Shown: positions 10,080-51,409, counted from the whole stretch's first letter. The stretch is 54,186 bases of DNA, filler included, from Jimgerdemannia flammicorona (GCA_003990765.1; 2 parts of 2 records of this genome joined end to end with filler, not necessarily neighbours in it); one strand, 5' to 3'. Translations and numbers: made by a program. Notes: generated by a model not told the origin, from the letters alone.

Positions 10080-12530
<2,451 letters not shown>

Positions 12531-13190: not shown

Positions 13191-13948
13191 ATAAACAACT
13201 CTGATTCAGTATTCTGACTAATTATAAGTATAATATGTATAAGTAACTATACTATACTAGGAGTTTATATTATCTAGCTATATTATACTATTTGCTTGTT
13301 ATGTATAATACAAATCATACAATATAAGAAGATACAACTTATGGAAGCTTTGGAGTTTAAGTGAATAGAATATTTCACCTATTTAGGAGAAAGATGTAAT
13401 AATTGCTCCAAATTAGAAATATGAATTAAGAGAATAGATATTTGATTATAGTATCTAAATATGATTTCTAAATATAATATAGACTTATAAATAGCAGTTA
13501 TTTTACAAATGTAGAAACTTTAACAAATATTAAAGTTTTGATAAATATTAAAGTTTTTACAAATATTAAGATTTAACCAATATCAAGGATTAATACTTAA
13601 TAACTCATAAAAATATAATTATAATTTAGCCACCTTATAGCTAGTAAACTTATATAAATATTTCCAGTCTCTAGAGTGAATAAACTTCAGAATAAAATAG
13701 TTTCAAACAAAGAAAAGCAAGAGAACTAGTAAGCCTGTAGGCAGATATACTTCAAACTCATACACCCCTATATCATAAGGACTCTATAGAGTCAAAGAAG
13801 ATTAAGGTTTTAAGATATAGAAATCTGATATACTTATATAGTTATATATCTACTATACTATAATAGATATCTTTCACCAGTAAAATTCTGATGACACAAG
13901 ACTCAGACAAAACTTTTACAATGTTTTTGGTGATAGACGATAGTTGAT

Positions 13949-15837
13949 ATGGATGGCAATGATCGAACTAGTGAGCATGCTGGCCAGGGGGAAGGTGGTG
14001 CCTTTGGCTGGTAGGAGGTGGAGAGGAGGGGAGATGGTTTAGGGATGCCAGGGGCCTCAATGGCCAGCTGAGGTACTAGCAGTAGAGGGAGGAGTGGCCT
14101 GAGGCAGCAAGGAGGGGAGAGGTTGACCTTTGCTAATAAGGTCAAGATGGTTGGCTGGACCTGGGGAAGGTGTCGATGACTGCTGCTGGGGATCAGGGAG
14201 GAGTGCCCAGGGGAGTGTCTGGTGGTAGGGGAGGGGGGGGAGTAGGGGCTGGTGATGTGACTGTTGATGGGGCTGTAACTGGGAATCTGGCAAAAAATCC
14301 AGATATGACAGAGGTTGCTGGTTCAGGAAGAGTGGGCACAAGGATCAGGAACTTGGCTGATGGGGTGATGGGCATGGTGTCAGTACCATTACTCAAGAAA
14401 TCAAGGTCAGAATTTGCCATCACACTGTGTTTCAGGGGCTTGGTGGTGACTGTGAGGATGATCTTGGGGCTGGTGGTGCAGGAGGCAAAAGGGGTAGTAT
14501 TAGTGAAGTTTTTGAGGGAGAAAGAAGGAGTTGAGGTGGGGTTTAAGGAAGAAGAAGTGTTGCTGGCTGCCATGGAGAAGGGGGTTGTGGTGGGCAGGGT
14601 TGTGGTCCCGATGGCCAGGTGTATGCACTGGGACCCACACGTAGTACAGTTGATAGTACTGAATCTTCTTATGGTATTGAGGGAGAGGGCTAGAGAGTTG
14701 ATTGTGGAGGCAGTCAAGGAGTATGAGGAGATTGTGGATATTGGGTTTAAAGTCTGGGAGGGTACAGAGGTCTGGACTAGTGATGTCGATGTCTGGGTGA
14801 GGCTGGCTGGAAAGAAGAACACAGGGAAGATGAGGGACTGGCCAGCAACTCTGAGGTGGGGACCAGTAGAGTGTAAGGTCACGAGGGTGAAGGGGACCCA
14901 GAAAGAGGAGGAGGACTTGCTTGAGGCTCTGGAGGATCTTGAAGGAGTGGTCAAGAGGCAGAGGTTGGCTTGGATGGAGTATGAGCCCAGGACGGTGGTG
15001 AAAGTTGTTGATGGGAAGAGGGTCAGGATAAATTGGGTGACCTGAGAGAAGATGTAGGGGAGGAAAGTCCAGAAGGAGCTGCTGGCAAAGTTGGGTGGCA
15101 GTGGGGTAGGTGGCAGCACAGGGGATGGGAAAGCAGGATTGTGGGAGAGTGCCTGGACCAGGGGAAGCAGGATGGCCCAAGGTTGGGCACAGGATAGATT
15201 GAGAGAGGAGAGGGGTGGTGGTGTGGAGGCTGATGCTGAAATGGGTGAAGAAGTATGCCCTCAGTATAGTGTCCTGGGTGGGGCAGTGGGGGAGGAAGAG
15301 TTACTGGATATACTAGATGAGGAGTGGGATGAGTCAGTGAGGAGGAGCACTTTGGTAGACCCAGAGGTAGGGGGTGGTCAGATCACCCAGAGTATGGTGG
15401 AGATGGTGGATGAGGAGAAGTGGCTGTGGAAGATGCTAGAAGGGGTGGCAGCAGAGAAGCTGGGGGGAGAGGACTTCCAGGTTATGGAAGAGAGGCACTG
15501 GGAGGAAATCCTTTGGGGAGAGGAGGTGCTGAGGAAGGTGCCAAATGAGATTCTAGCAGTTCTTTTGGAATCAGTTGAATATCAAGTCAATGATCAGAGA
15601 GAGGAGGAACTTAGGGGGATTGCGAATGACTGGGCAGCATACTTGTGGAACTCAAGGAAGGGATTGGAGAAGTGGCAAGTGGTCTGCACAGATTACCAGT
15701 CGGAGATAGAGGTGGTGGATGGGGTGGAATGTTAGGAAATCTTGGAGGCATTGGATGCTTAGGTTATTGTGGAGGATGACTTGGAAGCAGAGTGGTGCTT
15801 GGATCTAGCTGGGGATGAGATGAGTAAGGAATACTAG
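13949..15837 (+). pseudogene. LINE ORF1 (disrupted)
   Basis: Collinear ORF fragments 14170-15045 and 15091-15735 separated by C-to-T-type stops; homologous to 51490-53405. Confidence 0.75.
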
Positions 15838-18749
15838 GCTGGAGTCTTCAATTCAAACTTTTCCTTCAATATGAATAGTATAACTAGAAATTCACTTTGA
15901 ATGTGAATGGGCTATAGGGGGCAGCTAGGAGGAGGTATATATTTGGATGGCTAAAAGAACTGAATTCAGATCTCTTCTTATTGCAGGATGTCTGTTATGA
16001 GAAGGATGAAAACTTACAGGATTGGACTAAGGAATGGGGGGGGGCTACAGTATGGATGGGGAGGGTGGGCATCCTCATTCAAAAAGGGATATGGGACATT
16101 GGGGACATTGGACATTAGGGGTCTTGGTTGGTGTAGAGAGTGTGGAAGAGGCCTAGATAGAGCCCGTTGATGGTTGGGTCATGTTATTGTCCAGCAGAGA
16201 GAGGGGAATGGGTGGATTGGATTCATAGTTTGAAAGAGGCTGGTGTATTGGGCAAGGCTGGGTTAGACTGCTTGGGGGGGGACTTCAACATGGTATAGAA
16301 TAAGGGACTGGACAGAACAGATAAGGAGAGAGGAATGGGGAGCAGGAGTGGTGGGTTGGATGACTGGTTGGAGATGGAGTAGTTGAGTTCTTTGATTGAT
16401 CAGGGAGACAGTTCTGAGATGAGCATAGAATTTATACTTACTGGGCAGTAGGGCTGGGTTCAAGAATTGACTGGATACTAATGACAGGCTACTGGAGAGC
16501 CGATGTCTGGATGATGCTGGAGGTGGTTTGGTGTCTATGGTCCAATCACTGGGGTCTGCTTGGAGAGTGGAGGTTTGGGGGTAGTGGGGATGGGCCTGGG
16601 TATTGGTAACTAAATTCCTCCTTATTAGAGGATGGGGTTCTGTAGATGGACTGGGAGAAGGAGGTGGTTGGGAATATTGGGATGTAGTGGAACCAGGGCT
16701 TGGAAATTGGGGACTGCTGGAGGAGGTTGAAGGCGAGTACTCAGGGGTACTGAAGGGAAGCAGGGAAAGGAAGGTGTGCTCAATGATGGCAGAGAGTGCA
16801 ATGGGCCATACAGCGATTGGTGGTGCTCATGGAGAGATGGGCTGGGGTGCTAGAAGAGTTAGAGGTGATTGATTGGCATATTGTGAGAATCCAGAAGGAA
16901 GTTGAGGAGCTTAAGGATGTGTTGTGAAGTGAGGTGGAGAATAGGCTGAAGGGGATAGTGGTACAGCTGTGGTGGCAGAGGCTTGAGGAGGATGAGAGAC
17001 CTACTAGGTTTTTATTGTGAATGCTACAAGCAAGATAAACAAGCAGTGGTGAGATGGAGTCCTGGATGTAGATGGAGAGATGGTGGTGGGGACTCCAGTA
17101 ATTCTAGAGTTGCTGAGGATCCATTGGGGGGAGCTGTAGAGCAAGGAGGAAGGGGGGGTGGATGCTTTGGACATTGAGAGACAGCTGGGGGATTGGCACC
17201 CAAACCCTGTATTGGGCCTGGGGACTTTGAGGGACCTGGTGAGAGTTGAGGAAATTTGCAGGGTTTTGGCTATAACAAGTAAGAGGATGGCTCCAGGAGA
17301 GGATGGGCTTCTCTGGGATTTTTGGAAGAAGATGGCTGGAGTGGGTGAGGTATTGGAGGAAATGACCATTATGTGTAGTAAGGTTCTTCAATCTGGAACT
17401 TAGATTGGGGGCCAGCACCTAGGGCTGATCTCCTTGCTCTTTAAGGATAAGGAAAGGCAGGAAGACTGGAAGAACTGGTGGCTGATCATGCTTCTTGACA
17501 TGGACCACAAACTGGTGACAAAGATATTAGTGATGAGATTGTAGGGAATTGCTCAGCAAGTGCTTGGTGTGGAACAAAGAGGGTTTATCAGGGACCAGTT
17601 GATCTGTGATAGGATGGCTTGGGTGCATGGTGTAATTGAAGGGGCTCGGGCTGTAGGAGTGGATGGTTGTTTTGTTTTTTTGGATCAGGAGAAGGCATAT
17701 GATAGAGTGAGGAGGGTCTGGTTGAAGGGAGTGTTGAAATGGATTGGTGTTCCTCTGGGAGTCCACAGGTCATTGATTGGCCTTTTGGAGAACAGTCAGG
17801 CTGTACTGGTAGTCAATGGCCACAGGGGGGTAGTCTTTCCTCTTTGTCAAGGGGTGCCACAAGGTGACCCATTGTCACCAATCCTATATGCCCTCTCCCT
17901 GGAGCCCCTACTGGACAGGATCTGGTGTTGAGTTGGGGGTTTGGACATTCTAGAAATAAATTGGAAGGTGGGGGCCTTTGTGGATAATATGGTGGTTGGA
18001 CTGGGCTTGTTGGTGGATGTGGGGGAATTATGTCAGTCTGTTGAATGATATGAGAGGGGCTCTGGTACTAGACTCAATTGGCACAAATGTGAGACTCTGG
18101 TGCTGGGAGGTGGAATTATTGGTGGTGACATGATAGAGATAGTGGTGCCAGCAGAAGAGCCAGTGTGCTACTTGGGAATCTACTTCTCAGTGTTTGGATC
18201 ACTTCTTCCCCATGCTTGGTGGGACTAATGACTTCTGGAGTGGGAAATGTTCTTCTGTGATAGGGTGGTCAGTATATATCCTTAGCTGGAAGAGTGATGG
18301 TGCTGAATGTATACTGGCTACTGAAACTGTGATATGTAGGGTATCATCTGGACTTCTCAGCTTAGGTGGTCAGGAGATTGTTGAAATTGGCGAGATCATG
18401 GGTCTGGGGAGGGCAGTGAAGTCAGATAGGTTGGGAGATTCTTACTCTATCAGTAGAGAAGGGTGGGCTGGGTTTAGTAGACTTTACTAAATAGCTTCAT
18501 TACTTGAGAGCCTGGTGGCTGAGGAGAGCAAGTGAGCTGCAGGGTCAGGAGTGGGTGCCACTCATGTAGAGGGTGTGGGAGGTCCAGTATTCCCCTCATG
18601 GAGCTTCTGGTGACCTGCTTACAATGGTGGCCATGGATGGGAGCTGAAGGATATGGTATAAGGGCTTTTGGTTGGGGGTGGTGAATGGTACTAAGCAGAT
18701 TGGACTTCGGTGGGGGGTAGTGCATTGCAACCCAAGCCGAGCCATGTAC

Positions 18750-19080
18750 ATATTTAACCCAACCCAGAATTATACGTCATCCGTCTTTAACCCGACCCAG
18801 AATTATATGTCACCCATCTTTAACCCAACCCGGAATAATACATCACCCATCTTTAACCCAACCCAGAATAATACGTCACTCATCTTTAACCCAACCCAGA
18901 ATTATATGTCACCCATCTTTAACCCGACCTGGAAACATACATCACCCGTCTTTAACCTGACCTGGAATTATACATAATCTGTCTTTAACCCAACCTGAGA
19001 AATATACATGACCCAATCTGAGAAATATATGTGACCCAACCCTGACCCGTATTTAACCCAACACAGACCCATCTTTAATC
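18750..19080. repeat. hAT left subterminal 33-bp tandem repeats
   Basis: TTTAACCC(A/G)ACCCAGAAT(T/A)ATA...CACCC(A/G)TC about 8 times; mirrored at about 24440-24630. Confidence 0.9.
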
Positions 19081-21951: not shown

Positions 21952-24307
21952 ATGTCTAAAGATCAAGAAGTACATTTAGGAGAAATCTCAGAACCATCAG
22001 ATGATATATCGGAGGATATATCAGAGGATATATCAGATATCTCCACTAGTTCATTATCACCAATAAGCATGAGAATAAAAATAAAAACAAAACCTGGTGA
22101 TAGCTGGGTGTGGAATCATGCCACAAAGGTAGTTTTATACATTATGCTAATGGTTGAATTCATAGGGGTGATGGGTCTCAGTTGTAAGGGTGGGTGGTTG
22201 GTTGTAAGTGGTTGAGGTTCTAATATAGTCTCATATCTCTCTATTCAAATAGAATTTACAAAGTAAGCTCATCAGTTGCAACCATTGTATGACTTGGAGC
22301 TATATATCGAAGGACGGCAATATCAACAATCTTAAATGACATCTCTGGAAGCATCACAATACCATGCTCTTACCTCTCCAGCATGCTGAGAATCCTTGCT
22401 GGTCTAAGAAAGATGATATTGTGAGTATGGATAGAATGGAATTCAGGAAGTACTTAGGAGGTTATTAGAAAAATAATTGATCAAATTTTATTATTACAAA
22501 TAGGAACACACTAGCAAGACTTTAAGTGATGAAAATTTCCGTCGGTTAATTGCCAACTTCATTGTCACTGGATATCAGCCATTCTCCACTATCGAAAATG
22601 CTGGCTTCAAGTATCTCCTTCATATATTATGCCCTGATCTGGCCCTTCCATCAGCTGATATGATTTTGCGAGTTATTCGAAAGGAATTCGAACTATTGCA
22701 GACTCAAGTGAAAGCAAGGCTAGTAGGGCTCAAGTCAAAGATGTCACTTACACTTGATTGTTGGACATCAGACATTAACATCAAGGCTTTCCTTGGAATA
22801 ACAGCCAATTGGATTGACAGTGATTGGAAGATACATGACATTATCTTAGACTTTGTGAATATCAGTGAAATAACACACATGGGTGCCAATCTTGCAAAAA
22901 GTCTGGAGCTGGTAGTAGATGATTTATTGCCTAGTGACAATCAAATCATTGCCATTGTGTATGACAATGCCAGTAACAACAATACTCTGTTTGAGAATCT
23001 CCATCATCTGCTTGCTCATATACACTGTTTCGAGCATGTATTGAATCTCATCATTCATGATGCTCTTGGTTCTCTTAGCGAGCCCATTGGAAAGCTACGG
23101 GAGTTGATAAAGAAGATCAAAAATTCAGCACAACGACAAGCACAACTGGCAAAGATCTGTGAATCCTTCAGAATTCCCATTTTGAAGCCTCTCTTAGATG
23201 TTATGACGAGATGGAGTTCTACATATGAAATGTTAGCATGTGCTCTGGAGATTTGTAAGGTAAGATTTTGAATCTATTTGTATAGATTTTGGAATACAAT
23301 TTGGAAGTATTTTGGTACTAAATAAATTGATATTACATCCAAATAGGGCTTGGATATATTGTGTGCTATGGATAAGCAAATGAGCAATATATCTGAAGAT
23401 GCATGGCAATAATTTGAATTGATTTTCCGATTTCTCGAGCCTTTTGCCAAAGTGACAACTGTGATGTCAGCTTCGAAGTATCCTACAATAGCAGCTGTTA
23501 TCCCACTATTTAATCGGCTATGTAATCACCTTGAAGATGTCATCGATACATATCAAACTGGTGAACATTTTAATCAGGTATATATATGATTTTGAAAGTA
23601 ATTTTATTTGTGAATTTAGGATCTAATTTAGTAAGTAATTGGGAAGTAATATGTGTATATTTTTATTTTTTATAGATAATGCTTACCACTGCTGAGAATG
23701 TACATATGAAACTTCTAAAGTATTACTGCAAGATGACACCATTATACAGCATAGCTTCGGCCTTAGATCCACATATCAATATGCATTATTTCCGTTGTGA
23801 GCAATGGAAAAAATCCTTAATTGATGAATGGAAGAATCAGATGGAACGTATCTGGGAAAAGCAGTATAAGCCTGTTAATGCTATCATTATACCCTCAATA
23901 TCTCATGATGCCAATGATTTTATCAACTCAATATATGAGAAGAAACAGCACGTTGATGTGGATGATGAGCTTGAATGGTGAGTGTTGTTTTTATGTTTTT
24001 TGATTGGCTTGGTTAATGTTCACTCATATTTCTCTGTTTCAGTTATTTGTCAGAGAATCCAGCTGATCCTCATATAGATATACTGGATTGGTGACGGTGA
24101 AATCAGTCAGTATATCCTAATCTTTCACGAATGGCTCATGATTATCTTGCTATTTTGGTGACATCTGTTCCATCTGAACGTATTTTTTCTATTGCTAGTG
24201 AGCTAGTGACTGAATGTCGAAACAGCTTGTGTGTAAATACAATTCGTGCATGCATGTGTTTGGTTTCTTGGTGGTCTTCAGATATTTTTCACTTTCAATT
24301 ACTCTGA
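21952..24307 (+). pseudogene. hAT transposase (BED zinc finger, DDE domain, hATC dimerisation domain), 6 exons, several stops
   Basis: WVWNH...CNHC...HLWKHH BED finger; SLTLDCWTS, YDNASNN, CFEHVLNL, TRWSST, and SVPSERIFS; GT-AG introns at about 22129-22251, 22421-22503, 23260-23346, 23578-23675 and 23979-24041. Confidence 0.92.
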
Positions 24308-26165
24308 ATATTATCCAAATATTTTCTGAATAATTTTTTCAGAGCAGAGTTCAGAGGGTCAGGTTCAGGGTCGGGTTCAGGGGTCAGGTTCAGGGTCAGG
24401 TTCAGGGGTCGGGTTCAGGTTTGGGTTAAGGGTAAATAATGAGTCAGGTGATATACATTTCCAGGTCAGGTTAAAGATGGGTAATGTATCTTTCTTGATC
24501 AGGTTAAAGATAGGTGACATACAATTCTGGGTCAGGTTAAAGATGGGTGACATATAATTCTGGGTCGGGTTAAAGACAGGTGATGTATAATTCCAGGTTA
24601 GGTTAAAGACAGGTGACGTCTAATTCTGGGTTGGCTGTTTTACGAGTTGGGTTTCTGATTAATCGGGTCGGGTTTGCAGAGCACTAGTGGGGGGGGATGA
24701 AGGAGAGGAGGTTTGGGGACTGTGGATGTGATGTTGGGACAGGCTACTGCTGGGAGGTGTTTTGGTGGAGGACTTAAAGCTTAGCGATGGTATGGAGTGT
24801 TTGTGGGGCTTGGGTAGCAATCTTTAGTCTGAAGCCTGGCAGAGAGTTGGGATTGGAGAGGAGTGGAACTGGAATAGTCTCTGGCTTTGGAGCAAGCAGG
24901 TGTCTCAGTAGCTACCTCTCAAGTTCTGGGTGATATGGTGGCAAGTTCTACAGTGGAATATGATGTTGAACTATTGGTCTGGGCACTTGATGGCCAGTAG
25001 CATGTTTGAGTGTAAGGAATGCTTCGATGTTAGACAGGAAGGTGGGTGATACAAATGTCTGAACATTGGCTTAGTGAGTGTGACATTTTGGGGTTGTTTT
25101 GGGGGTATATCACAGACTGGTTAGGGCTGTGAGCCCTGGAGGGAGAGGAAGGGAGGAGATGGGAAGAGCTCCACTGATGGCTGGTTAGAGGGGTTGGGGA
25201 TGAATGGCTGACCCTTGGTTGGGCCCTGGCCATATGGGTGGGGATGGCTGGGCATTGGGTATATGTATTTGAGGAGGGTTGATAGGTTGGGGTTAGGGAT
25301 AGGGTGCTATATTGAGAATGGTTATTACTAGATATTTTGAATGGCTGGTGGCAAGGGTGGGGACCAGGTGGGGGGAGTCATAGAGGTTTGGTACAACATA
25401 TCTCTAAGAAAAGTGATGGGAGGGTTCAGGTGGTGGGTGACTGGGTTGTCCTCCAGTAGGGGAGAGTAGAGAGGGGAAGGAGGAGATCCGAGGGATATTG
25501 GCTGAGAGGATGGAGTGATATTGTATTGTATTATTATTATTATAGATAGCAGTAATAAAGGGAAGTCCAAGTAACTATAAAAAAAAAAAAAAAAAAACTA
25601 TACTATAATAGATATTATCTTCTGATTTTAAATTTTCAAAATACTATCAAAAATAATTAATATATCTAACTATTATTTCATAAATTAAATAATTTTAAAA
25701 AGATATTAAATCTTTGATTATAAAAATAATTAATTTATAAATAACTTAATTATATTTTATATATGATATTATCCAATTATAGATTGTAATTATAAATTGA
25801 ATTAATAAGTAATTTTAAAATAATAAATCTAATATAGAGTATTTAGAAGAGTTGTTTTTGGAGATTTTGATAGGAATAAAATTATTTTAAATATTGATAT
25901 ATGGAAATTTGAATAGACATATTAGAGATGAAAAGACAATTGTTTTAGGAATTAAGATATATATCTCTATAAAGTTAATATATTATAATATATATTTTAA
26001 TAAATTAATTTATATTATAATATTATATAGCAAATTAATTATTAAATTGAAATAATAAAAATAGATAAAGGTAAATAAAATAAACATTTCATTGGACACA
26101 TTATAAATTTAATATTATTACATCTATTTTTTTTTTTTTTTTTATAATTTACTTAAAGGTATTGT

Positions 26166-26175
26166 ATCACGTGAT
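26166..26175. promoter_or_regulatory. Intact palindromic E-box (ATCACGTGAT) at the 5' edge of the structured island
   Basis: Perfect 10-bp palindrome with a CACGTG bHLH/Cbf1-type core; CpG retained. Confidence 0.4.
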
Positions 26176-26178
26176 TTT

Positions 26179-26870
26179 GCCTTTCCACTGACGCTTTGCC
26201 GGTTCCGTCCACACCACACTTCTATTTTCCCCTTCACATTTCCACAGATATAAGACATTGTGAGAATGTGAACACAAGGCGACGGAAGGGCATTAGTTGA
26301 CTGGGATACATGACTAGGATACCTATCCTATGTGTTCTGATTAAGGCTTATTCAACCGAATGGCCCCTGAGGACATTGTCCAAGGGTTTCCCTGCGGTCC
26401 TCGGTAGTGCGTTCCTATCACCGGGAACAATGAAGAGCAATGGTGCCTGCGCTATCCCTTCAACGAGAAGTAGCAGCGTCGGTAACGCCGCCGAATTATA
26501 ATAGGCGCGCTGGGCAGACCTCGCAAGCGGTCTCAAAGGCCTCAAGGCCCGTTCATTCTCACTTGTCGTCCCGGAGATCAGGTATACTGCTTATATCAAC
26601 ACGCGTGAAACGATACTAACTGTCTCGTTCGTCCAATAGAAGGACAGCCACCCTCTAGTTGAGGGTGGCAGATGTGGGTGCAAAACCTACACGAGATAAC
26701 AGTATTCACGCGTGTTGACTGCCAAACAGATGCACTTTTGTTGACCTTATATCCTCGCAAATGAATCGCCTAGTTCATTCCATATGGACGACTATGTCAG
26801 TTTGACATGTCGCCGACTGTCAGTATGGTATTGCCTATTTTGCATAGGAGTTCCTTCGTCTATTTTTATT
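26179..26870 (+). ncRNA. Unidentified highly structured non-coding RNA locus (about 0.7 kb)
   Basis: CpG-rich, no credible ORF. Helices 26179-86/26284-91, 26192-98/26275-81, 26233-46/26259-72, 26304-10/26331-37 capped by TAGGAT-ACCT-ATCCTA, 26403-11/26448-56, a GCAA-tetraloop hairpin 26516-33, 26596-609/26705-18 and 26789-812. G-U pairs favour the + strand; T-tracts follow at 26861. Confidence 0.65.
26622..26698 (+). tRNA. tRNA-like cloverleaf with non-canonical 9-bp anticodon arm (no assignable anticodon)
   Basis: Acceptor GTCTCGT/ACGAGAT plus discriminator A; T8; D-arm GTCC-AATAGAA-GGAC; arm GCCACCCTC-TAGTT-GAGGGTGGC; variable AGAT; T-arm GTGGG-TGCAAAA-CCTAC. Confidence 0.75.
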
Positions 26871-26906
26871 TTTATGTTATTTTATTTTATTTTACTTTTG
26901 ATATAT

Positions 26907-27047
26907 TGTAACAGACCCAAAAAAACGTACCACCTGAATTATAACTTAGCCAGATGACGCGAACAATTAGCATACTTACTCAGCATGATGTGACTTCCAG
27001 TGTATCATAGTTACTCATGCCCGCCACACTTATAATTAGCCAAGACA
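26907..27047. mobile_element. Possible start of a young LTR running into the assembly gap
   Basis: Begins TGTAAC like the LTR at 48026; contig ends shortly after, as is typical at repeats. Confidence 0.3.
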
Positions 27048-27147
27048 NNNNNNNNNNNNNNNNNNNNNNNNNNNNNNNNNNNNNNNNNNNNTTAATTAAT
27101 TAANNNNNNNNNNNNNNNNNNNNNNNNNNNNNNNNNNNNNNNNNNNN
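27048..27147. other. Artificial 100-bp scaffold spacer (44 N + TTAATTAATTAA + 44 N)
   Basis: Six-frame stop linker at 27092-27103 embedded symmetrically in Ns. Confidence 0.95.
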
Positions 27148-28774: not shown

Positions 28775-28834
<60 letters not shown>

Positions 28835-33759: not shown

Positions 33760-36078
33760 TGTGATGTATGCAATTGACAATGGAGTACCGGTAACTGCTA
33801 AGATCAGATGACATAATGGCATGACAATTGAATAGACAGCCTGACCCATTAGGTGATCACCCCAAAAGGAGCAATGATAATCCGAGCCAAAAGGAAGACT
33901 ATGTTATTTAAAGAACTGTACCCTGCCTCAGGAATCAGCACTAAAGAACAAGTACTCACTACACAATGCCTCCTATCCACTACTCCAACCAGACCTCCCA
34001 CTGCTCTTCCCCCTTGCCTGGCCCAAAGACTCTAATCCTTGAAGCTATCAAGAAGGCTATTTGGCGCCCAGACACCTCTGAACATCTGAACTTCTACACC
34101 AAGGATCTTGGACACTTCATCAATTACCGATACATAATGACCCAACAGCTCAAAGATACCACTGAATGAATGACCCTCTGGCATGATTATGAAATTGGAC
34201 ACTGCCTTCATAATGAAACCCAAGAAGGCAACCAGGAAGACCTCATTGCTGAAATATTAACCACCAGCCGGCTAATCAAGAGAGCCCTCTATGTCCACCA
34301 AATCTTCTGCCATATTCCCTAGGCTATAGCACACTTACAAGGAGTGACTGCTAGAAGTCTTGCCCGTCTCTCAACTGAAGATGCAGACTGGATAGAATCA
34401 GAAGTAGCTGACTCTATTAGTAGTAACTGGGTTGCTGTAGGAAGCCAACAAGCCAAGCCCACTCAACCAGGCTTTCACACCACTCTACTCCAAGATAACC
34501 ATCAAGGTCACCTAATGAGTCTCATGGAAATCTTCGAAGGACCACCCATTACTATTACAACACCTGTTGGAGCAACCCCAACTACTCACCACCCTGTCAG
34601 CTACAATTCGCACCTCATCATTTGGGAACCAAGTCAAGAAGTCCCAGAAGTCCCTACTAACACAGAAACTGAAGGATCTGAGGAAGAAGAAGAAGAGGAA
34701 TAAAGAATCTACCAATCCTCTGTCCGCCTTCAAGCAGTCCAAGGGTTGGAGAATGTCATCAAAGATGATTGGCCACAATTCTACCCCCTCACCTCCTGGT
34801 CGGCGCTCCCACTCTTTGAAGAACAGAATGAAGAAGTCATAACCCAGCAAGATGATTGGTTCACTGACAAAGGGTACTTTACCATTCAGTGATCCAATGT
34901 CCATTTCCTCAGTCTGGTCAGCCAATGTTTGTCAGTGAGTCAGTAACATCCGTTTCCAGTGATACCACCCCCAACAACCGAATCAGGCACTGGCACTCGC
35001 CTTATCCCAATTCAGTGATCCAACATCTGTTTCCTCAGTCCAGTCAGCCAATATTTGTCAGTGAGTTAGTAACATCCGTTTCCAGTGATACCACCCCCAA
35101 CAACTGAATCCGGCACTGGCACTTGCCTTATCCCAATTCAGTGATCCAATGTCCGTTTCCTCAGTCCAGTCAGCCAATGTTTGTCAGCAAGTCAGCAACA
35201 TCTGTTTTCAGCGATACCACCCACAACATCCATATCCAGCACTAGCACTCATCTTATCCCAATTCAGCGCAAACAATTGTCGCACCCATATTCAGCAATT
35301 AAACCACCACAATGTAGTATACCTTAGCCCCCCCCCTAGCTAGCAAATTTGTATAAATAACTCTATATCTTAGAGTGAATAAACCTCAGTCAGTTTGTGT
35401 TTAAAAGTAAAAAGGATTACAAAGAAACCTCACTGCCTCCAAGAGACCAGATAAATTCTGAGAACAAGATAACTAGAGCAATGATCGCTCGAGGTTTGAG
35501 TTAAAGAATTTTCTCTTGCCACGGAAAATGTTCAAGATTTGCCACTAAGGAAAGCCATATGAAAAGCTGTTCAGTTCAGTTTAAAGACCCACTGCTAAAG
35601 GAAAGCTGCACAAAAAACCGCCAACTACCGCCGAGATCCCGCCAGCCCAACCATCGTACATTTGACCCAACCATCATTCATTCGACCTGACTGCCATGCA
35701 TTCAGAACCAACTGCCATTCGAGGTTCAAGACTGCACATTCGAGACCCGCCATTCAAGTATTAAGACCCCAGCCAAGGAACCCAAGGATACTTAGCTTAG
35801 GAAAGCCAGCACTGTCATCATTTACCTAACAAGTCAGACAGACGAGTTCCCCTTTACCCGCTATGCCATGAACCATATATGTTCAAGAAGTAATTCACCA
35901 CTAGGAAAATTCATCAACCACTAAACAACCAAGCCTCCACCATACAAATCAGACAAACTGATCACATGACCATCGACCCGCAACCATCGCAAACGCACTC
36001 AGTCATATACTGCATGCTCCACCAAGTGGTATGTTGAGCTGTGCTTGAAGCAACTAGAGATACAAACCACATACCACA
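33760..36078 (+). repeat. 5' LTR (2319 bp)
   Basis: Direct repeat of 44029-46330; TATAAATA and AATAAA at 35352-35383; three 126-bp tandem units from 34884. Confidence 0.95.
33966..34892 (+). pseudogene. 308-codon ORF of unknown function inside the LTR (second copy 44235-45161)
   Basis: One frame from ATG to TGA; most internal stops are sense codons in the other LTR copy. Confidence 0.7.
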
Positions 36079-36081
36079 TTT

Positions 36082-36099
36082 TGGGGGCTCAACTGGGAA
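36082..36099 (+). other. Primer-binding site, tRNA-Pro-like
   Basis: TGGGGGCTCaactGGGA just after the LTR resembles the complement of the tRNA-Pro 3' end (TGGGGGCTCGTCCGGGA). Confidence 0.6.
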
Positions 36100-36147
36100 A
36101 GTTTTCAAAAGACTTGACCATTTGGCTCAAGAACCCAGCTATCTACA

Positions 36148-39100
36148 GTGGAGAACTTAGCAGGACCAAGTCAGCAACCAAACCAGGGGCAGCAACAGCC
36201 CTCCTCAGCAGAAAAGAAAACCCACACCCTTGTCAGAACAGTAGCCAGGACCCTATTCAACACCAGTAGCCAGAAAACCGAATCAGAAGAAAGAAGTGAC
36301 CCAGATTACGGTTTGACTTCAAGAGAAAGGAGACAACTCAGAGGACAACCAGAACCACCCCTTCAGATCCAAGACTTAGGCCAAGAAGAAGAAGAGGATA
36401 TCCCCGAGGAGTATCAGACCCTTATCCATAGGAAGAACTCAGACAGAAGTGACTATATAACTACTGTTGTTACTTGAGTTACTCCACTAGACCAGGTATA
36501 CTTTGAAACATCAGGAGAAGAGGACTACCATCCATATCAACCAGAGCAAGATGATGATTGGGGATCAGACTATCAAAGGGACAAATTCAACCTACACTAT
36601 TATCCAGACAGCAATACAAACCCACAACAAGGCAAACAAGACCTCACTACTTCACAACAGCAAGGGGCAGACGAACTCACTATCAGTTATATCAGTCCAC
36701 TCCCACCATCAGTTGCTCGAACTTCAGTACCCTGGTCACTCACACCTTGCCACTATCACTAGTCAATCAGAAGATCTCCACCACTACCCAGGACTTCAAC
36801 CCCAGCATTAATTAGAAGAGCCAGATTACCCTCACCCTCACCAAGACACCGCCCTCTGCCAGCACCACTAGTTCATCAAGTACTAGCACCACCACCTTCC
36901 CCATCACCCCAAGGATCTGCCAGATCCCCTACCCCTGAACAATACTCAGATAGTGAAGATGAGCCAGATATGAGCTACCTTCAGAAGTTCCATAGTGCAG
37001 ACAATGAAGATATTGAAGAATTCTTTGGAGAAATTGAAGTTCAAGCAGCTGCCAAACAATGGGATGTTGCAAGAAAACTCAGAATTGTGGAGTCACTCCT
37101 GAGAGGACCAGCCCTATAGAGGTATAATCAAGCCAAGCAAGCTGGAGGAGGAATCCATGCAGAGGAACTGAATGATGGCCTTCAACCTGATAGAAACCAT
37201 GTAGCAAGATACATGATTCACAAAGCCTGGCTCCGTGCCCAGTTCAATGGATTCAAGTGCCAACAAGAAGTACAGAAGGCTTTGACCTATATGAGCCAAG
37301 CTGCCAATGAAACTCCCAAGAGTTTCTACCATCGGATTCAAGCTCAAATGATCAAGGCAAACCTTCAACCAGCAGTCCAACTGGCTCTAGCCTCAACTAC
37401 CTTCCTCAATAGCTTATATACAGAACTCCGAAGGCAAGTTAACAGGATGGGATATCAAAACATTGAACAGCAAGTTGCTGGAGCACAAGGATGTTGGGAA
37501 GCAGATTATAGACCAGTACAACAAGTACAAGGCTATCATGAGCCAATCCGAGCTGAAATCCCAAGGACCCAAGGAACAACCATGGAGCAAGAGAATGCCT
37601 TCCTCAGAGCCCAGATAGCCAACTATAAAAACAGACCAGCACCCACAAATCCGACTCCATTCAGGCAACCACAGCAGCAGCCACCATCAAGAGTTCAAGA
37701 AGACCCCATGACAATACTCACCAAGCAAATGAAGGACCTGGCCATTGTGGTTGCCCAGCTGAAGAACCAAGGTAGAAGACAACAAGACTACCATTGTGAT
37801 AATAGACCAGACTACTGGCAACAAGACAACAGAGGTCCTGCCCCTGCACTACCAGCTGCAACTACAGTCTCATCAGTGACTGGTTCCTATGGTCCCATCT
37901 GCTTCAACTGCGGAAATCAAGGCCACATCCAGAGAAATTGTCCAAGGAATCAGTCCACCCAGTCTAATGACAGAAATGTCAACCTCTTTCAGGTAGATGA
38001 AGAGACTCAGGAGATGGAAGAAGAAGCAGCCTGGTTCCATGGTCAAGAAGATGACATCTACCCATACTTCGAGGCTTTTCCATCCAAGGTGACATGGGAA
38101 GCTGCCCCCACAGAGACCAGAGGATGAGGAAGACCATGAAGGAATCCTCTACCTCAACTGCCAGTAACAATATCCACAGGCAAGCATCTGCAACATGGCC
38201 ATTTTTCTTCAGACACTCCACAAGAACAGGAGAAGCAAGTTAGAAGAGATACTCCTGAACCAGAAGCTGGACCATCTAGGACAACCCCCAGCTCTACCCT
38301 GCCAGACCTTGAAGAAGATGAGCATATGAGCATAGAATCTTTAGCTGATGAAATGCCCATCAGGAATGAGAGACTACACCCCAAGAGACCAAGACACCAA
38401 AGAAGCAGCAAGCCCCATACAGCAGCCTCACTTTGGGAACATATCCGCCTACAGAATACTGGTCTTACAGTTGAGCAAGTCCTCAAGAATGCACCAGAAG
38501 TCAGGCGAAAATTCCTGAAAGAAGCCAAGAAAGATACCAAGAGACTTCTAGTCCAAGGACCACACACTCAAGAACCTAGCACTATCCACATAGCCCATGA
38601 GAGCCAGCAACATGAACATCAATCTACAAGACTCGCTAATGGAAAAGTGCATGGTGAAAATGCCAGAATTCTTGTCGATACTGGAGCAGTAGTATGCATC
38701 ATCACCCAAAGAATGTTGGAGCAAATTGGATGGGAAATAGATGAAGGAACCAAAGCAAGAGTTATCATGGCCGACAGATCAGCTTCCACACTCCTTAGAC
38801 TTGTCAGAGACATCTCCATTCAAGTCAGAAAGGCCTGCCTCAATGTACCCAAAGCTGTTGTGACCCCTGCAACCTCCTATGACCTGATCCTGGGAACTGA
38901 CTGGTTAAGCCGAGTTGGAGCCAATGTAGATATCAAGAAACAACTCCTGGTCTTCTCCATTTATGGACAGAAGCACAAGGTGCCCATTGACTCGAAAGGA
39001 TTATCCAAAAGGACGAATCAAGCCTCAGAAACAGAATGGCAAGGACATGGCGACACCCCCACCACTACCAAGGATGAAAGTGAGGCCAATTTTCTGCAAG

Positions 39101-42100
39101 AACTAGGAAGTGATTTCGATGCCCCAAGGGACCAAGAAAGCAAACAAGAAGACTCTTTCATTAGAGTTATTGGTGTTGAAGGTCTGGAAGAAAGCATTGA
39201 TAGAGCCATTAATGCAAGGGCAGCACTTGAGTTTGCAGGACCATCTGCTCAACCACCACTACCACTGGTAGAAAATCAGATCATACGAGCCTTTCATCAA
39301 GGCATATGTGAACATTTCATCAGCTTCCACTCACCAAGAGATGATTGCAGCAATTGCCGAATTCTGGATCTCAAGAAGGTTCCAATGCCAGAAATTAATG
39401 ATAAGGATGAATTGAAGCAAGCACCATTCTACAGTCGAATACAACCTCCAACCCCGAAGACCTTTAAGAAGACCTATAAGGGAGGACAGAAGATCCTCGC
39501 CCACCAAACATTCGAGTCCCTTACCATCGAAGGAGAAAGCAGCAGCTCTTACACTATCACCCGGGCCCTTCAGATCACACAGCCCACCTATGACAAGTAT
39601 CGGAAGAGATTCCCTACCAGTAGGAAAGTCAAACAGTGAAATGAAGACTTTGTTAAGAAGGGACATTGTGATTGTGGAAAGACCTTTACCTGCCACTGGT
39701 GTGAACATCGAGATGTTCACCTCAGTGAAGATGTCTACAAGAGCTGAGTCAAGAGAAAGGATCCCACTCTGCAAGAACCTCGAATTCACTGGGCCTGTTG
39801 GAAGTGCCCATGAAGGAGATTGCAAGTTCAAGAGCAAGACCTCTATCTGGGACCTACCATTGGAAGTTCTTGCCATCATTCGCTGGTACTGCCGCCCTCA
39901 TCAAGGAAAAGAAGGTATCAATCTTGCCTTCATCCTTATGGAAGCTCTGGACCCTCTAGGAAAGACTGGATTCAATTACACAAGAAACTCAAAGACAGGA
40001 GCTCATTGGCCTTTCTTCAAACTGGAGTGCATGGACTTCTCACCTACAATAGCAATAGCTGAAGCACCATTTCTCAAAGCTCAACCAATTATCCAGGTCA
40101 AGCTGCTTTCACCCTGGGCACAGCCACCTCTTGCACAAACAGAAGGATCAGTTGGTTATGACCTCTGCCTCCCCTACTAAGCAAGAATCTGACCTAGAAG
40201 TACCAGGATTTTTGACCTACAGATTGCACTTGTTATACCACCTAGGCATTATGGACAATTGGCCTCAAGATCCTCATTGGCAACCAAAGGAGTCACAGTA
40301 GAAGGAGGAGTCATTGATCAGGACTACCGAGGTCCCTTGAAGGCCATTATCCGCAATTCTAGTAGAACCAGCTAATTCTTCAGTTCTATGGAAGCCATCT
40401 GCCAAATCCTGTTTATCAAGACATCACAGTCGACCATCCAAGAGGTAGACCAACTAGAAGATACCAACAGAGGACAAGGAGGCTTTGGAAGCACTAATAG
40501 AAATCTACGGACACTACCTATCGAGATTCATTTAGCAATAGTTGCTCAATTCCAACAAATAAGACCCCACATCTGCTGCCCAATCCGAGCAAGAGAAGAC
40601 ATCCTCCTGCAGCCCTACCAGCAAAAAGGCCTAGATGTGCACCTACCAGTAGAAGCAAACAACTTGATATTTGCACCATCACTGGAGCTTCAAAAGGAAT
40701 ACTACATCCTCCTGGCTGAAGAATGAATTCATGACCAGATGTCACTGATCTACATCCCTATCAGAAACTTGGGCTTCGAAGTGATAACTATCCCCAAGGG
40801 AACAACACTGGGATATTTCGAACCACTGATAGACACCTACAAGGAAGAAGTCTTCGAATTCTTGGGAAACAGCAAGCTCTCTCTGGTGAGACTGACAGTA
40901 CCAGGGAGGAAGACTCAGCAAATTCAGCAATCAAAGCCATCAACATCAAGACAACTCTAACCAAGGATCAGCAACAACAGATACAGGAGTTGATAGAGGA
41001 GTATAAAGATATATTTACCACCACATATGATAACTTCCCACCATATCAATATGGAGAACACCCTATACATACTGGAGATGCAAGACCAATCCAACAATGA
41101 CCCTACCAAATACCACATTATCTGATTGAATTTGAACAACAACACATAGATGAAATGCTATAAAATGGAGTCATCAGACCATCATCAAGCCCCTGGGCTT
41201 CACCAGCAATCATAGTACCAAAGAAAGGAGGATGGAGATTAGTCGTGGATTTCAGAAAACTCAACAAAGTCACCACAAAAGATACCTACCCACTGCCAAG
41301 AATTGATGACCTCATCAATGCCCTCGGAAAAGCCAAATACATGACCACTACTGACCAGTTCCAAGGATTCCAAGTAATACTTAATGCCAAAGAAGATATC
41401 TGCAAGACAGCCTTCATCACCAGATGAGGACAGTATGAATACCTACGAATGCCCTTTGGACTCTGCAATGCACCCGCCTCATTCTAATGAATGATGAACT
41501 ATGTCTACCAGGACCTCATTGGAAGAAATGTACTAGTGTACATAGATGATGTAATCATCTACTCTGAGACATTCGAGTAGCATTTGCAAGACCTCCGTGA
41601 AGTATTCAATACCATTTGAAATTCAGGACTCAGACTCAATGCCAAGAAGTGCTTCTTCAGAAAACATCAAGTCGAATATCTGGGATATTTGTCTCAGCTC
41701 AAGGAACATATGCTGACCCCCACAAGGTGGAGAAAGTCAAGAACTACCCAACCCTGACCTCAGCAAAGGAGACCCTATCTTTCCTTATGCTGGCATCCTA
41801 CTATCGACAATTTATCCCAAGGTTTTTAGATAAGGCAGCACCTCTTCGAGATATCTCCAAGAAGGACCAACCATTCTACTGGAAAGAAGAACAACAAAAG
41901 TCATTTGACCTACTCAAGAAGGCCCTTACCAAAGCCCCTATCCTGGTGTGACCAGACTTTGGCAAACCATTTATCTTGGCAACTGATGCCTCAGCCTTAG
42001 GACTTGGATCAATTCTGTCTCAGCAAGATGACCAGAAGAGGGAGCATGTTATCGAATATGCTAGCAAGGCCACAAATGAAACACAAGCGAACTATGGAGC

Positions 42101-43615
42101 CACTAAGTTGGAATGCCTAGCAGTAGTTTGGGCTGTAGACCACTTCTGATACTATCTCTTGGGAAAGAGATTTGCCCTCATCACTGACCATCAAGCTCTA
42201 TAATGGTTGTTCAACAAGCTGGAGCCCTCAGGAATCTTCGCTAGATGGATTATGTCTCTGCAAGAATATCAGTTCACTATTGTCTACAAGAAAGGTGCTA
42301 AAAATTCCAATGTCGATACTCTGTCAAGAATCCCATGAAACCAACAAGAAGAGAAGGAGCCCCCACAAGAGAAGACTGCTTCCTGCTCACCCAAATGAAC
42401 CAAGAATTGCACCTTGCCCTCATCTGGAGTCTGCATCATAGAAGCTTCAAGAAAGGAATCTAACCAGCCCATAAGTTATTTATCCAAAGGAATTTCAAGA
42501 AATTCCAAGAAGGTGATGGCAAACTTTGAAGAGTAGAAAGAGAGCAGTACACCCAAGTTCCAAGAGAGGAAGAAATATTGAAGATCCTGACAACAAATCA
42601 TGACCAAAATGCACACCGAGGAATTGGCGCCACAATCGCAAGAATTAAGAAGCGATACTGGTGGCCCAAGATGAGAAAACAAATTTCAATGTATATTTAA
42701 CAATGTGATACCTGCCAAAGATACCGACAAAAGCCTACTGACAGAGCACTATTAATACTGATTGCAGCACCAGCTAGAGCCTTTCAAAGACTGGGAATAG
42801 ATATTATTAGACCCCTATCAGTAACCAGCCAAGGAAGATGCTACATCCTCACTATTGAAGACTACCTAACAAAATGGCCTGAAGCCTTTGCCATTGAGAC
42901 TGCCGATGCCCAGACAATTATTGGAATCCTGTATGATGAAATTTTCAGCCACCATGGTGTGCCCAAGGAAATCATTACAGACCAAGGCCGAGAATTCGTC
43001 AACCAAGCCATGAAGACCTTTGCGAGTAACTTCAAGATCAAGCTACGACCAACAACAGCCTACCACCCACAGGCAAATGGACTTACTGAACGAATGAACC
43101 AGACCATCAAGCGAGGTCTCAGTAGAACCGGAGATCAACTAAACTGGGATATCTATCTACCAGCAATTCTGTTCAGCATCTGTACCTCTAAGGCAACCAC
43201 TATTCAACAGACCCCCTTCTATTTGGTGTATGGCTGAGAAGTACAAGATCCTACTGAACCAGTCCAGCTAGATCTGTCAAAATGAGTCACAGAAGGGATC
43301 ACCCGGTTACATGACATATGCTAGCAAGCACGAGGATTTATCGCTAAGGCACAAGAATGACAAAAGAGGTACTATGACCGCAAAGCCGACCTCGAACCCC
43401 TGCTCATTGGACAAAAGGTTCTGGTGTACTATACCATCATAGAAGGAAATTGGAGTGCCAAGCTTGAACCAAAATGGGAAGGCCCCTATCTTATACACCA
43501 AGTATTCTCGAACCACACTTATCAACTCAAGACCTTGGATGGAGTTATACTCAAGACCAAGATACACCACAACTGCATAAGACTCTACTACTCAAGAGAA
43601 GTAAAACACATTTGA
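36148..43615 (+). pseudogene. gag-pol polyprotein (CCHC, protease, dUTPase, RT, RNaseH, integrase), disrupted
   Basis: CFNCGNQGHIQRNC; ILVDTGA; GSVGYDL...RSSL...GVIDQDYRG...RGQGGFGST; YIDD; LATDAS; TDQGREF, HPQANGLTERMN and KWEGPY; no chromodomain seen. Confidence 0.92.
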
Positions 43616-43811
43616 ACAATCCTATTCACTCTGTCTGTGTTGTCTCCACTGGAGATATAATGGACATTTCACTCGGAACTCAAGAAAGCCAACAATGTTG
43701 GAACCAGACTCAAGCCCATCCATGTGACAGACATTGTTACTAAGAAATTGCCTCGGATTATAAGAAATACTATTTCCGATGGGTTCGAACCCCCAGCCAT
43801 GACTATGGGAG

Positions 43812-43995
43812 CCCTCGCCCTAGACAAGGATGGCCAGTTCTCACAAATGTACCAACATTCTGCTCATTCCTGGAGTTAAGACCACCCAACTCTGTGTAAC
43901 CCTCACCCTAGACAAGGATGGCCAGTTCTCACAAATGTGCCAACATTCTGCTCGTTCCTGGAGTTAAGACCACCCAACTCTGTGTAACCCTCACC
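43812..43995. repeat. 88-bp tandem duplication upstream of the PPT
   Basis: CCCTC(G/A)CCCTAGACAAGGATGGCC...CTGTGTAA starts at 43812 and 43900. Confidence 0.9.
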
Positions 43996-44028
43996 ACCGA
44001 GGATGGCTCTAATTTTGCAAGAGGCAGA

Positions 44029-51000: not shown

Positions 51001-51409
51001 TCAGCTCTATATCTTTGTACTTGTATATATTAATGACATCCTGATCTTTAGTAGCACTGAAGAAGAACACCTCAAGCATATTGAACAAGTCCTCAAGATC
51101 CTCTGTGAGAACAAGTTCTATGTAAAGCTCAAGAAATGTGAATTTTTCAAGGATTAAGTTGAATACCTTGGACACATTGTATCAGCCAAAGGAATTCAAG
51201 TAGATCCAAGAAAAATACAAGTCATTGAACAGTGGCCTGTACCAGCAAATCTCACTGAACTCAGGTCCTTCCTTGGTCTGGCTGGATACTACCATCGATT
51301 TGTCAAGAACTTCTCTGGCATTGCAGAATCTTTGACAAACCTCCTGTGAAAGGAACCCAACTCTGACCTCTATGTCTCCTACATCTGGGATGCTTTCTGT
51401 TGGACTCAT
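48026..51409 (+). mobile_element. Ty3/Gypsy element (5' LTR 48026-48418, gag, dUTPase, protease, RT), interrupted by a LINE
   Basis: TGTAAC...GTTATA LTR; decayed PBS; PMDLD and CFFCCQPSHIATKC in gag; dUTPase 49520-49920 (IAPRSGL, GVIDPDFRG, GFGST); LIDSRAVGNFI protease; VYINDILIF RT. Confidence 0.88.

Follow-up and report, generated by a model that had tools for sequence, protein, structure and literature searches.

A cloverleaf on the plus strand of this DNA, at 26622-26698, is tRNA-derived or an exact tRNA mimic and is unable to decode normally. In our best explanation, which we give an even chance of being right, it is a degenerate tRNA-like gene that reached this site as the passenger of a young retrocopy. 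The evidence comes from the fold and its homology to tRNA on the one hand and from the non-coding unit around it on the other; positions are counted along the window, that is, the whole stretch of 54,186 nt that was analysed.

A tRNA-like fold on a long stalk

The cloverleaf and the helices attached to it comprise the following features.

26596-26609, plus strand: 5' arm of a perfect 14-bp inverted repeat, TCAACACGCGTGAA, leader side of the stalk
26613-26617, plus strand: ATACT, forming an inner 5-bp helix with AGTAT at 26701-26705 (MFE fold and pair probabilities)
26622-26698, plus strand: tRNA-derived cloverleaf (Rfam RF00005, 37.3 bits, E 5.8e-7; relaxed ARAGORN), with a 7-bp acceptor stem, a 4-bp D arm with a 7-nt loop, a variable region of 4 nt, a 5-bp T arm with a 7-nt loop, and A as the discriminator
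26647-26669, plus strand: anticodon arm, enlarged, with 9 perfect base pairs and TAGTT as its 5-nt loop (fold and pair probabilities)
26705-26718, plus strand: 3' arm of the inverted repeat, exact reverse complement of the 5' arm, trailer side of the stalk (inverted-repeat search)

The Rfam tRNA family RF00005 matches the cloverleaf over model positions 1-71 with a score of 37.3 bits, the gathering score being 29; this match was obtained with permissive filters and a query restricted to 26600-26715, and its E-value of 5.8e-7 becomes about 3e-4 when rescaled to the whole window by our own arithmetic. With standard filters, Rfam leaves the cloverleaf unreported in the whole window as well as in a 241-nt excerpt, and its permissive mode gives no match on the 1149 nt from 25900 to 27048. 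ARAGORN, one of the checks proposed in the earlier note, gave a divided answer: at the default threshold it finds 0 tRNA genes in the 54-kb window, while at a threshold of 90% and with no introns allowed the cloverleaf is its sole match in the 54 kb. At 80% the program returns 30 matches in the window, and that level is therefore noise. The disagreement among the tRNA detectors is explained by filtering. The signal of tRNA ancestry in RF00005 is limited to the plus strand, the minus strand of 26600-26715 giving no match to this family at E up to 10; at the same cut-off, the Rfam listing for 26600-26715 holds only tRNA, RefA9 (E 1.4) and mir-1910 (E 0.59).

In the Rfam register, the tRNA stem pairs are all intact (21/21), 19 being Watson-Crick and two G-U (26622-26697 and 26676-26688), and a further acceptor pair, U-1:A73, is possible between 26621 and 26698. 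The RF00005 numbering agrees with the cloverleaf and the core positions that the earlier note had read by inspection; these are U8 (26629), A14 (26635), A15 (26636), A18 (26638), G19 (26639) and A21 (26641) on the D side, and U48 (26673), U54 (26679), G55 (26680), C56 (26681) and A58 (26683) on the T side. The same alignment bears out the claim that A18 and G55 stand in place of G18 and U55. Together with a C at position 33, these are the deviations from the tRNA consensus, and the D loop accordingly reads A18-G19 and the T loop U54-G55-C56 instead of the canonical G18-G19 and T54-U55-C56.

The anticodon arm, GCCACCCTC / TAGTT / GAGGGTGGC, folds in the MFE structure as the 9-bp stem and 5-nt loop that had been described, each of its pairs having a probability of at least 0.998. 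Read with a 5-bp stem it carries a 13-nt loop, and the RF00005 alignment places 10 nt in this arm against 4 in the model. An anticodon arm of 5 bp with a 7-nt loop and U33 is thus absent from the cloverleaf, and with either a 13-nt loop or a 9-bp stem, and with C at position 33, the prediction that it should not decode normally holds.

Below the acceptor stem, the inverted repeat proves to be an exact reverse complement over 14 bp, with TACT/AGTA between it and the acceptor, as the earlier note had it. The 14-nt arm pattern has two matches in the window, which are the two arms themselves, where 0.09 were expected; allowing 2 mismatches or fewer adds no further copy of the arm there, and CACGCGTG, the palindromic core of both arms, is found at just these two sites in the 54 kb (0.01 expected). 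The window has 8 perfect 14-mer inverted repeats whose arms lie at most 150 nt apart; of these, the pair 26596/26705 alone has a GC content of at least 0.4, and block shuffles never gave even a 12-mer inverted repeat of such GC content (0/30). The inner 5-bp helix is bounded by a 4-nt bulge at 26609-26612 and by an internal loop at 26618-26620 / 26699-26700.

The MFE fold of 26590-26725 is the cloverleaf on its stalk, at -66.3 kcal/mol, compared with -32.4 +/- 3.8 kcal/mol for shuffles of the same segment (z -8.91; 0/200 equally good); 40 of the 45 MFE pairs have a probability of at least 0.9, and the cloverleaf domain persists in both the MFE and the centroid folds of a 751-nt context. Beyond the tRNA scaffold, the fold contains 23 pairs (4 in the anticodon stem, U-1:A73, and 5 + 13 in the stalk), all of which are Watson-Crick (23/23) and are therefore strand-neutral. 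These extra pairs could have originated at the DNA level, by a palindrome-forming event; template switching in replication is described as making perfect stems (PMC8794818).

The retention of all stems together with a change at both partners of the G18-U55 contact, which is expected at roughly 1% by a crude count, could reflect selection on the L-shape rather than decay. As to the stems, about 3 changes from a normal tRNA suffice to give the observed sequence and the chance that all of them miss the stems is about 0.09 (own arithmetic), so that intact stems are no significant evidence of selection.

The unit that carries the cloverleaf

The cloverleaf lies inside a block that differs sharply in composition from its surroundings and bears the footprint of retroposition.

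26123-26131, no strand assigned: left copy of the putative target-site duplication, TCTATTTTT
26132-26143, minus strand: A tail of the unit, part of a plus-strand T17 run at 26127-26143
26144-26858, minus strand: non-coding body of the unit, GC 0.49, CpG obs/exp ~0.95, single-copy in the window
26322-26614, no strand assigned: part of the unit present in an RNA library, as two 151-nt contigs from run X1, an unstranded soil metatranscriptome
26859-26867, no strand assigned: right copy of the putative target-site duplication, TCTATTTTT, immediately past the last GC-rich base

Target-primed reverse transcription is the mechanism of LINE-type elements, and there are, in our estimate, about three chances in four that 26144-26858 was inserted in this way. 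On the minus strand the order is the duplication AAAAATAGA, the 715-nt body, a tail of A12-17 (5 T of the T17 run may belong to the target-site duplication) and the duplication again, with TTTTT/A as the target. In the 54,186 nt, the duplicated sequence TCTATTTTT has 4 occurrences on the plus strand, two of which are the copies that adjoin the unit, and 3 on the minus strand. As 5 of the 9 duplicated bases are T beside a T run, few bases of the duplication are informative, and the probability of its occurring by chance is about 1e-3 by a rough estimate rather than a computation. The pre-tail sequence of the unit, AAGTAAATTAT followed by A17, loosely resembles CCAAGTRACTAT, which precedes two other A tails of the window, a weak likeness of 9/11 aligned positions in AT-rich sequence. 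No paralogous empty site is present in the window (an empty allelic or orthologous site would read ...ACATCTATTTTTATTTTTATG). Fungal promoters, too, commonly have a poly(dA:dT) tract ahead of the gene. The window contains further long pure A tails (A123+A44, A58, A31, A19 and more), which show that A-tailed insertions occur in this region; a script recovered no target-site duplications for these other A-tailed elements. With its A tail on the minus strand, the copied RNA would be the minus strand, and because the homology to tRNA lies on the plus strand only, the cloverleaf would be antisense to that RNA.

The GC content is 0.488 in the unit versus 0.127 and 0.096 in its flanks. The CpG obs/exp ratio of the block 26160-26860 is 0.95 (39 CpG), to be compared with 0.20 for the whole window, a median of 0.10 for 700-nt tiles and a maximum of 0.61 among the 39 tiles with a GC content of at least 0.42. 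This ratio may reflect either youth or a distinct history; alternatively, a CpG ratio near 1 could be that of a protected, active locus.

The longest stop-to-stop frame in the unit is 80 aa in the standard code, and Pfam gives no match below E 0.05 in the 6 frames scanned. Frames read in the mitochondrial code are unremarkable, with no ORF of note, and there is no rRNA or other Rfam match, so that the possibility raised in the earlier note as adverse to its reading, a tRNA of mitochondrial origin (NUMT), has left no positive sign. At E up to 10, Rfam returns no match on 26150-26400, 26380-26630 or 26690-26910; neither blastn nor nhmmer finds a second copy of the unit in the 54-kb window; and inspection by eye, a weak form of negative, finds in the unit no telomerase template for TTAGGG, no C/D or H/ACA boxes and no hammerhead. 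An intron was also considered, with TACTAAC at 26614-26620 and a poor 5' site, GTATAC, at 26582; this was dropped because the 3' AG would sit in the D loop and because an RNA contig runs unspliced across 26582-26614.

Seven public sequencing runs were searched, five of which contain part of the stretch and none of which contains half of its words. Run X1 is the only one of the 7 with RNA evidence for the unit; its two contigs (26322-26472 and 26464-26614; 1 mismatch each, depth 5) resemble one read pair and end 7 nt short of the tRNA 5' end. The unit or its source is thus probably transcribed, a hint that is neutral as to strand. Contigs from X2-X4 (DNA or unlabelled) cover essentially only 26922-27040, which is a different, multi-copy element, and the gaps in cover elsewhere carry no information. 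One 134-nt DNA contig of X3 matches 26663-26706 with 6 mismatches; it could come from a relative or else from an ordinary tRNA. Pattern scans for relatives gave 0 matches in a metagenome collection, whether for the D arm and T loop separated by a gap of 20-45 nt or for both 13-nt arm cores separated by 80-110 nt, 0 matches in viral contigs and 0 matches in prokaryote genome contigs.

The window as a whole is eukaryotic, repeat-rich and of mixed composition. An artificial linker (N runs around TTAATTAATTAA) is present at 27048-27147, where contigs were therefore joined. Of the window's 168 stop-to-stop frames with 75 aa or more, the longer ones, 89 in all, were scanned with Pfam; the credible matches among these scanned frames are to degenerate retroelements only (zinc knuckle, aspartyl protease, dUTPase, RVT_1, integrase and Ty3 capsid), and no host gene was recognised among the 89. 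Clusters of proteins that look like the protease ORF have Basidiomycota as their commonest phylum in the protein Atlas, which is a lead only, and homologues of this ORF are absent at E 1e-10 within the length band of the search.

Origin of the unit and alternative explanations

If the cloverleaf is a passenger, its arrival would have begun with a nick at the TTTTT/A site in extremely AT-rich DNA, followed by priming from the poly(A) stretch that ends an RNA, by reverse transcription of this minus-strand, polyadenylated non-coding RNA, and by formation of the 9-bp target-site duplication. At the source locus, a degenerate tRNA-like gene would lie opposite the polyadenylated non-coding transcript, for which an lncRNA, a long 3' UTR or a LINE read-through are candidates; the cloverleaf with its leader-trailer stalk would then be a young, undecayed DNA copy of that locus. 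It is in this sense that we infer the insertion mechanism, the youth of the copy, its source locus and the absence of function at this locus. The earlier note had proposed a processing signal, or a protein-binding mimic, belonging to a larger RNA. What stands of this proposal is that the element is tRNA-shaped and tRNA-derived; the minus-strand A tail and the duplication point away from a sense orientation within a larger RNA, and the functional reading is not supported by the context.

A functional plus-strand element would nevertheless account for several of the observations. Under this explanation, which is possible but unlikely, the cloverleaf is a working tRNA-like structure of a longer non-coding RNA, similar to mascRNA or GUT15, in which cleavage by RNase P at 26621/26622 and by RNase Z just behind A73 would free a small tRNA-like RNA and set the 3' end of the upstream RNA. 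The intact core, with 21/21 stem pairs as well as U8, A14, G19, A21, U54, C56 and A58, is what such a substrate would present, and the internal loop at 26618-20 / 26699-700 interrupts the leader-trailer helix beside the would-be RNase P site. The 14-bp outer helix requires a transcript that starts upstream of 26596, and the RNA contigs do span 26322-26614; these contigs, however, are unstranded and amount to two read-length pieces at a depth of 5 in one run. The unit folds with a z of -5.45 on the plus strand and its CpG are undecayed, yet the tail and the duplication place the mobilised RNA on the opposite strand. The molecule from GUT15 comes from a Pol II lncRNA and is likewise without a canonical anticodon arm (PMC6152437). 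By eye, 26400-26621 holds no A-rich tract or U-rich triple-helix element, and no meaningful non-tRNA Rfam family matches 26600-26715 or the rest of the unit. With 0 relatives in the scans there is no support from covariation, and the extra pairs include no G-U (0/23). A bolder form of this explanation, which we consider distinctly unlikely, would make the element a fungal counterpart of the mascRNA/GUT15 class, non-decoding, on a stalk of ~19 bp, with the tertiary contact re-made as A18-G55, excised by RNase P and RNase Z from an lncRNA, in a unit also spread by retroposition.

Function might instead reside in the minus strand, which is the sense strand of the retroposed RNA, where the hairpin would serve for stability, for recognition by a reverse transcriptase or as a small-RNA precursor, the likeness to tRNA being a relic. 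The non-tRNA pairs, all of them Watson-Crick, are equally good on this strand; the long stem and the 9-bp hairpin still fold there, at -59.7 kcal/mol, and the minus-strand fold of the unit has a z of -4.41. We regard this as quite improbable: the plus-strand fold, at -65.7 kcal/mol, is 6 kcal/mol more stable, both G-U pairs of the cloverleaf turn into A-C mismatches on the minus strand, and blastn and nhmmer give no second copy in the window by which conservation could be judged.

The element could also be read as an autonomous RNA polymerase III gene with degenerate internal A and B boxes. Its product might be a tRNA(CUA) that reads UAG and has either an oversized loop or an intron of 4 nt; relaxed ARAGORN models it in the latter way (C32-U33-CUA-purine plus 4 extra nucleotides, labelled an 'intron'). 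A TATA-like CTTATAT is located about 26-31 nt upstream of 26622, and the B-box region GGTGCAAAACC fits 8/11 positions of the consensus. The promoter is, however, weakened by the change of T55 to G and by a poor A box, and the element is without a close Pol III terminator, the first T4 run (26736-26739) lying 37 nt beyond A73 and the first T5 at 26863. Introns of tRNAs need a bulge-helix-bulge geometry, which an insert of 4 or 6 nt is unable to make here because the arm is a perfect 9-bp helix. The ARAGORN register is shifted and requires the D stem to be separated from the anticodon stem by two nucleotides; in the Rfam register, the base at position 33 is C. A start near -10 would omit the 5' arm of the 14-bp helix, which would be left unexplained. 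Taken as a whole, a Pol III gene seems very improbable.

Finally, the perfect inverted repeat around a 95-nt core would suit a foldback element, a miniature inverted-repeat DNA transposon whose termini would be the 14-bp repeats. This is exceedingly improbable and can be dismissed because no duplication lies outside the repeats (...CTTATA|TCAAC versus GTTGA|CTGCCA) and the metagenome collection has 0 matches to the arm pair with a gap of 80-110 nt; moreover, with 2 mismatches or fewer allowed, the window contains the arm nowhere else, and the interior is a complete tRNA homologue.

If the cloverleaf is indeed a passenger, it is an ordinary by-product of retroposition and a warning that what looks like a perfect tRNA mimic may be no more than a young copy in junk DNA, and one that standard tRNA and Rfam filters miss. 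If instead the plus strand carries a working element, it would be the first tRNA-like processing module described in a fungus-like genome (searches of the literature gave no fungal one) and would offer a natural test of how the contact between D loop and T loop tolerates the A18/G55 swap.

Comparison with known systems

Rfam includes a mascRNA family, and generic tRNA is the sole Rfam match of the cloverleaf. Like mascRNA and menRNA, which belong to MALAT1 and NEAT1 in vertebrates, it is non-decoding and has a non-canonical anticodon arm. For mascRNA to be processed, its acceptor stem must be extended by leader-trailer pairing and leave a nucleotide unpaired where RNase P cuts (PMC8457004); in the cloverleaf, too, leader-trailer pairing extends the acceptor, and unpaired nucleotides lie beside the would-be RNase P site. 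In contrast to these RNAs, its stalk is perfect and much longer (5 + 13-14 bp), no A-rich or triple-helix element is seen upstream by eye, the cloverleaf is apparently antisense to its carrier RNA, and processing is here a candidate only.

The tRNA-like molecule of GUT15 in Arabidopsis is described as having standard acceptor, D and T arms and no canonical 5-bp/7-nt anticodon arm, a deviant A box, and a dependence on its Pol II host transcript instead of being an autonomous Pol III gene; it accumulates with CCA (PMC6152437). The cloverleaf resembles this molecule in its standard acceptor, D and T arms, its odd anticodon arm, its deviant A box and its non-coding surroundings, whereas the T loop of GUT15 is well conserved and that of the cloverleaf has G55; the two are compared by features. 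Membership in the mascRNA or GUT15 families is not supported, because the cloverleaf has no match to such an Rfam family, no triple-helix element and no sign of processing, and is apparently antisense.

The unit itself is closer to LINE-mediated retrocopies (processed retrosequences and orphan 3' transductions), with which it shares a poly(A) tail, a short duplication, a T-rich/A target, an abrupt break in composition and non-coding content; it differs from them in that the copy includes a complete tRNA homologue, which is in antisense and stands on a palindromic stalk. As in tRNA-derived SINEs, a tRNA-related module is found within an A-tailed retroposed unit. The head of a SINE is at the 5' end, in sense, and serves as the Pol III promoter, whereas the module of the unit is antisense and starts some 160 nt in from the 5' end, with one copy in 54 kb; with its strand and position wrong, it is not a SINE head. 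Lastly, like tRNA pseudogenes, the cloverleaf shows homology to tRNA, has lost its decoding features and falls under the default thresholds of the detectors; it differs from them in having kept every stem, in the change of both partners of one tertiary contact, and in the extra perfect helices of its anticodon arm and flanks.

CpG Depletion and the Probable Retrocopy

Across the whole window, the CpG dinucleotide is severely depleted (observed/expected 0.20) whereas GpC stands at a normal 0.90, a combination that suggests methylation-driven or RIP-like decay of repeats. The only part of the window that escapes this depletion is the 715-nt retrocopy, the non-coding unit read as inserted by target-primed reverse transcription. 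Within the retrocopy, an exact TACTAAC, the yeast-type branch-point word, is present at 26614-26620 in the leader of the tRNA-like cloverleaf and lies partly inside its 5-bp helix (26613-26617 paired with 26701-26705); its presence there is probably a coincidence.

To the right of the retrocopy, two features follow:

~26907-27047: element starting TGTAACAGACC..., with an LTR-like TG start
27048-27147: artificial linker, N runs around TTAATTAATTAA, with a six-frame stop

The onset of the element falls about 40 nt from the retrocopy. The element is multi-copy in the soil metagenome runs X2-X4, at a depth of up to 195, and the left flanks differ among the contigs of these runs that carry it. As the linker joins separate contigs, the DNA on its two sides need not be adjacent in the genome.

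Other Repeats of the Window

Positions 33760-46213 are an almost complete LTR element of the Ty3/gypsy type, whose LTRs measure 2.2 kb or more and in which direct repeats of 88-96% identity (33760-35960 and 44029-46213), located ~10.25 kb apart, enclose the first four features below:

37120-38124: gag
38140-39636: protease
41164-41424: RT
42701-43234: integrase
49005-51154: second degenerate copy, with a dUTPase domain

Strongly G-skewed repeats, with a GC content of ~50% and a GC skew of ~+0.5, occupy three further segments, one of them containing a reverse transcriptase fragment:

13914-18000: G-skewed repeat
17545-17928: RVT_1 fragment within it
24660-25597: G-skewed repeat
51454-54000: G-skewed repeat

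The 13.9-14.9 kb and 51.4-52.4 kb stretches share 79-86% identity. The sequence CCAAGTRACTAT closes two A-tailed ends in the window, one at the terminus of the 24660-25597 repeat (25567-25578, A19 tail) and the other outside the G-skewed repeats (11664-11675, A123 tail); together, repeats and A-tailed ends probably represent a non-LTR retroelement family. Unusually long pure A runs are found at 11676-11849 (A123 then A44) and at 28776-28833 (A58).

Finally, two arrays of 33-nt tandem repeats (18749-19028 and 24442-24643), inverted, ~84% complementary and 5.5 kb apart, flank a frame (22504-23268) with weak similarity to DUF659 (hAT-like); arrays and enclosed frame together look like a foldback-type DNA element.
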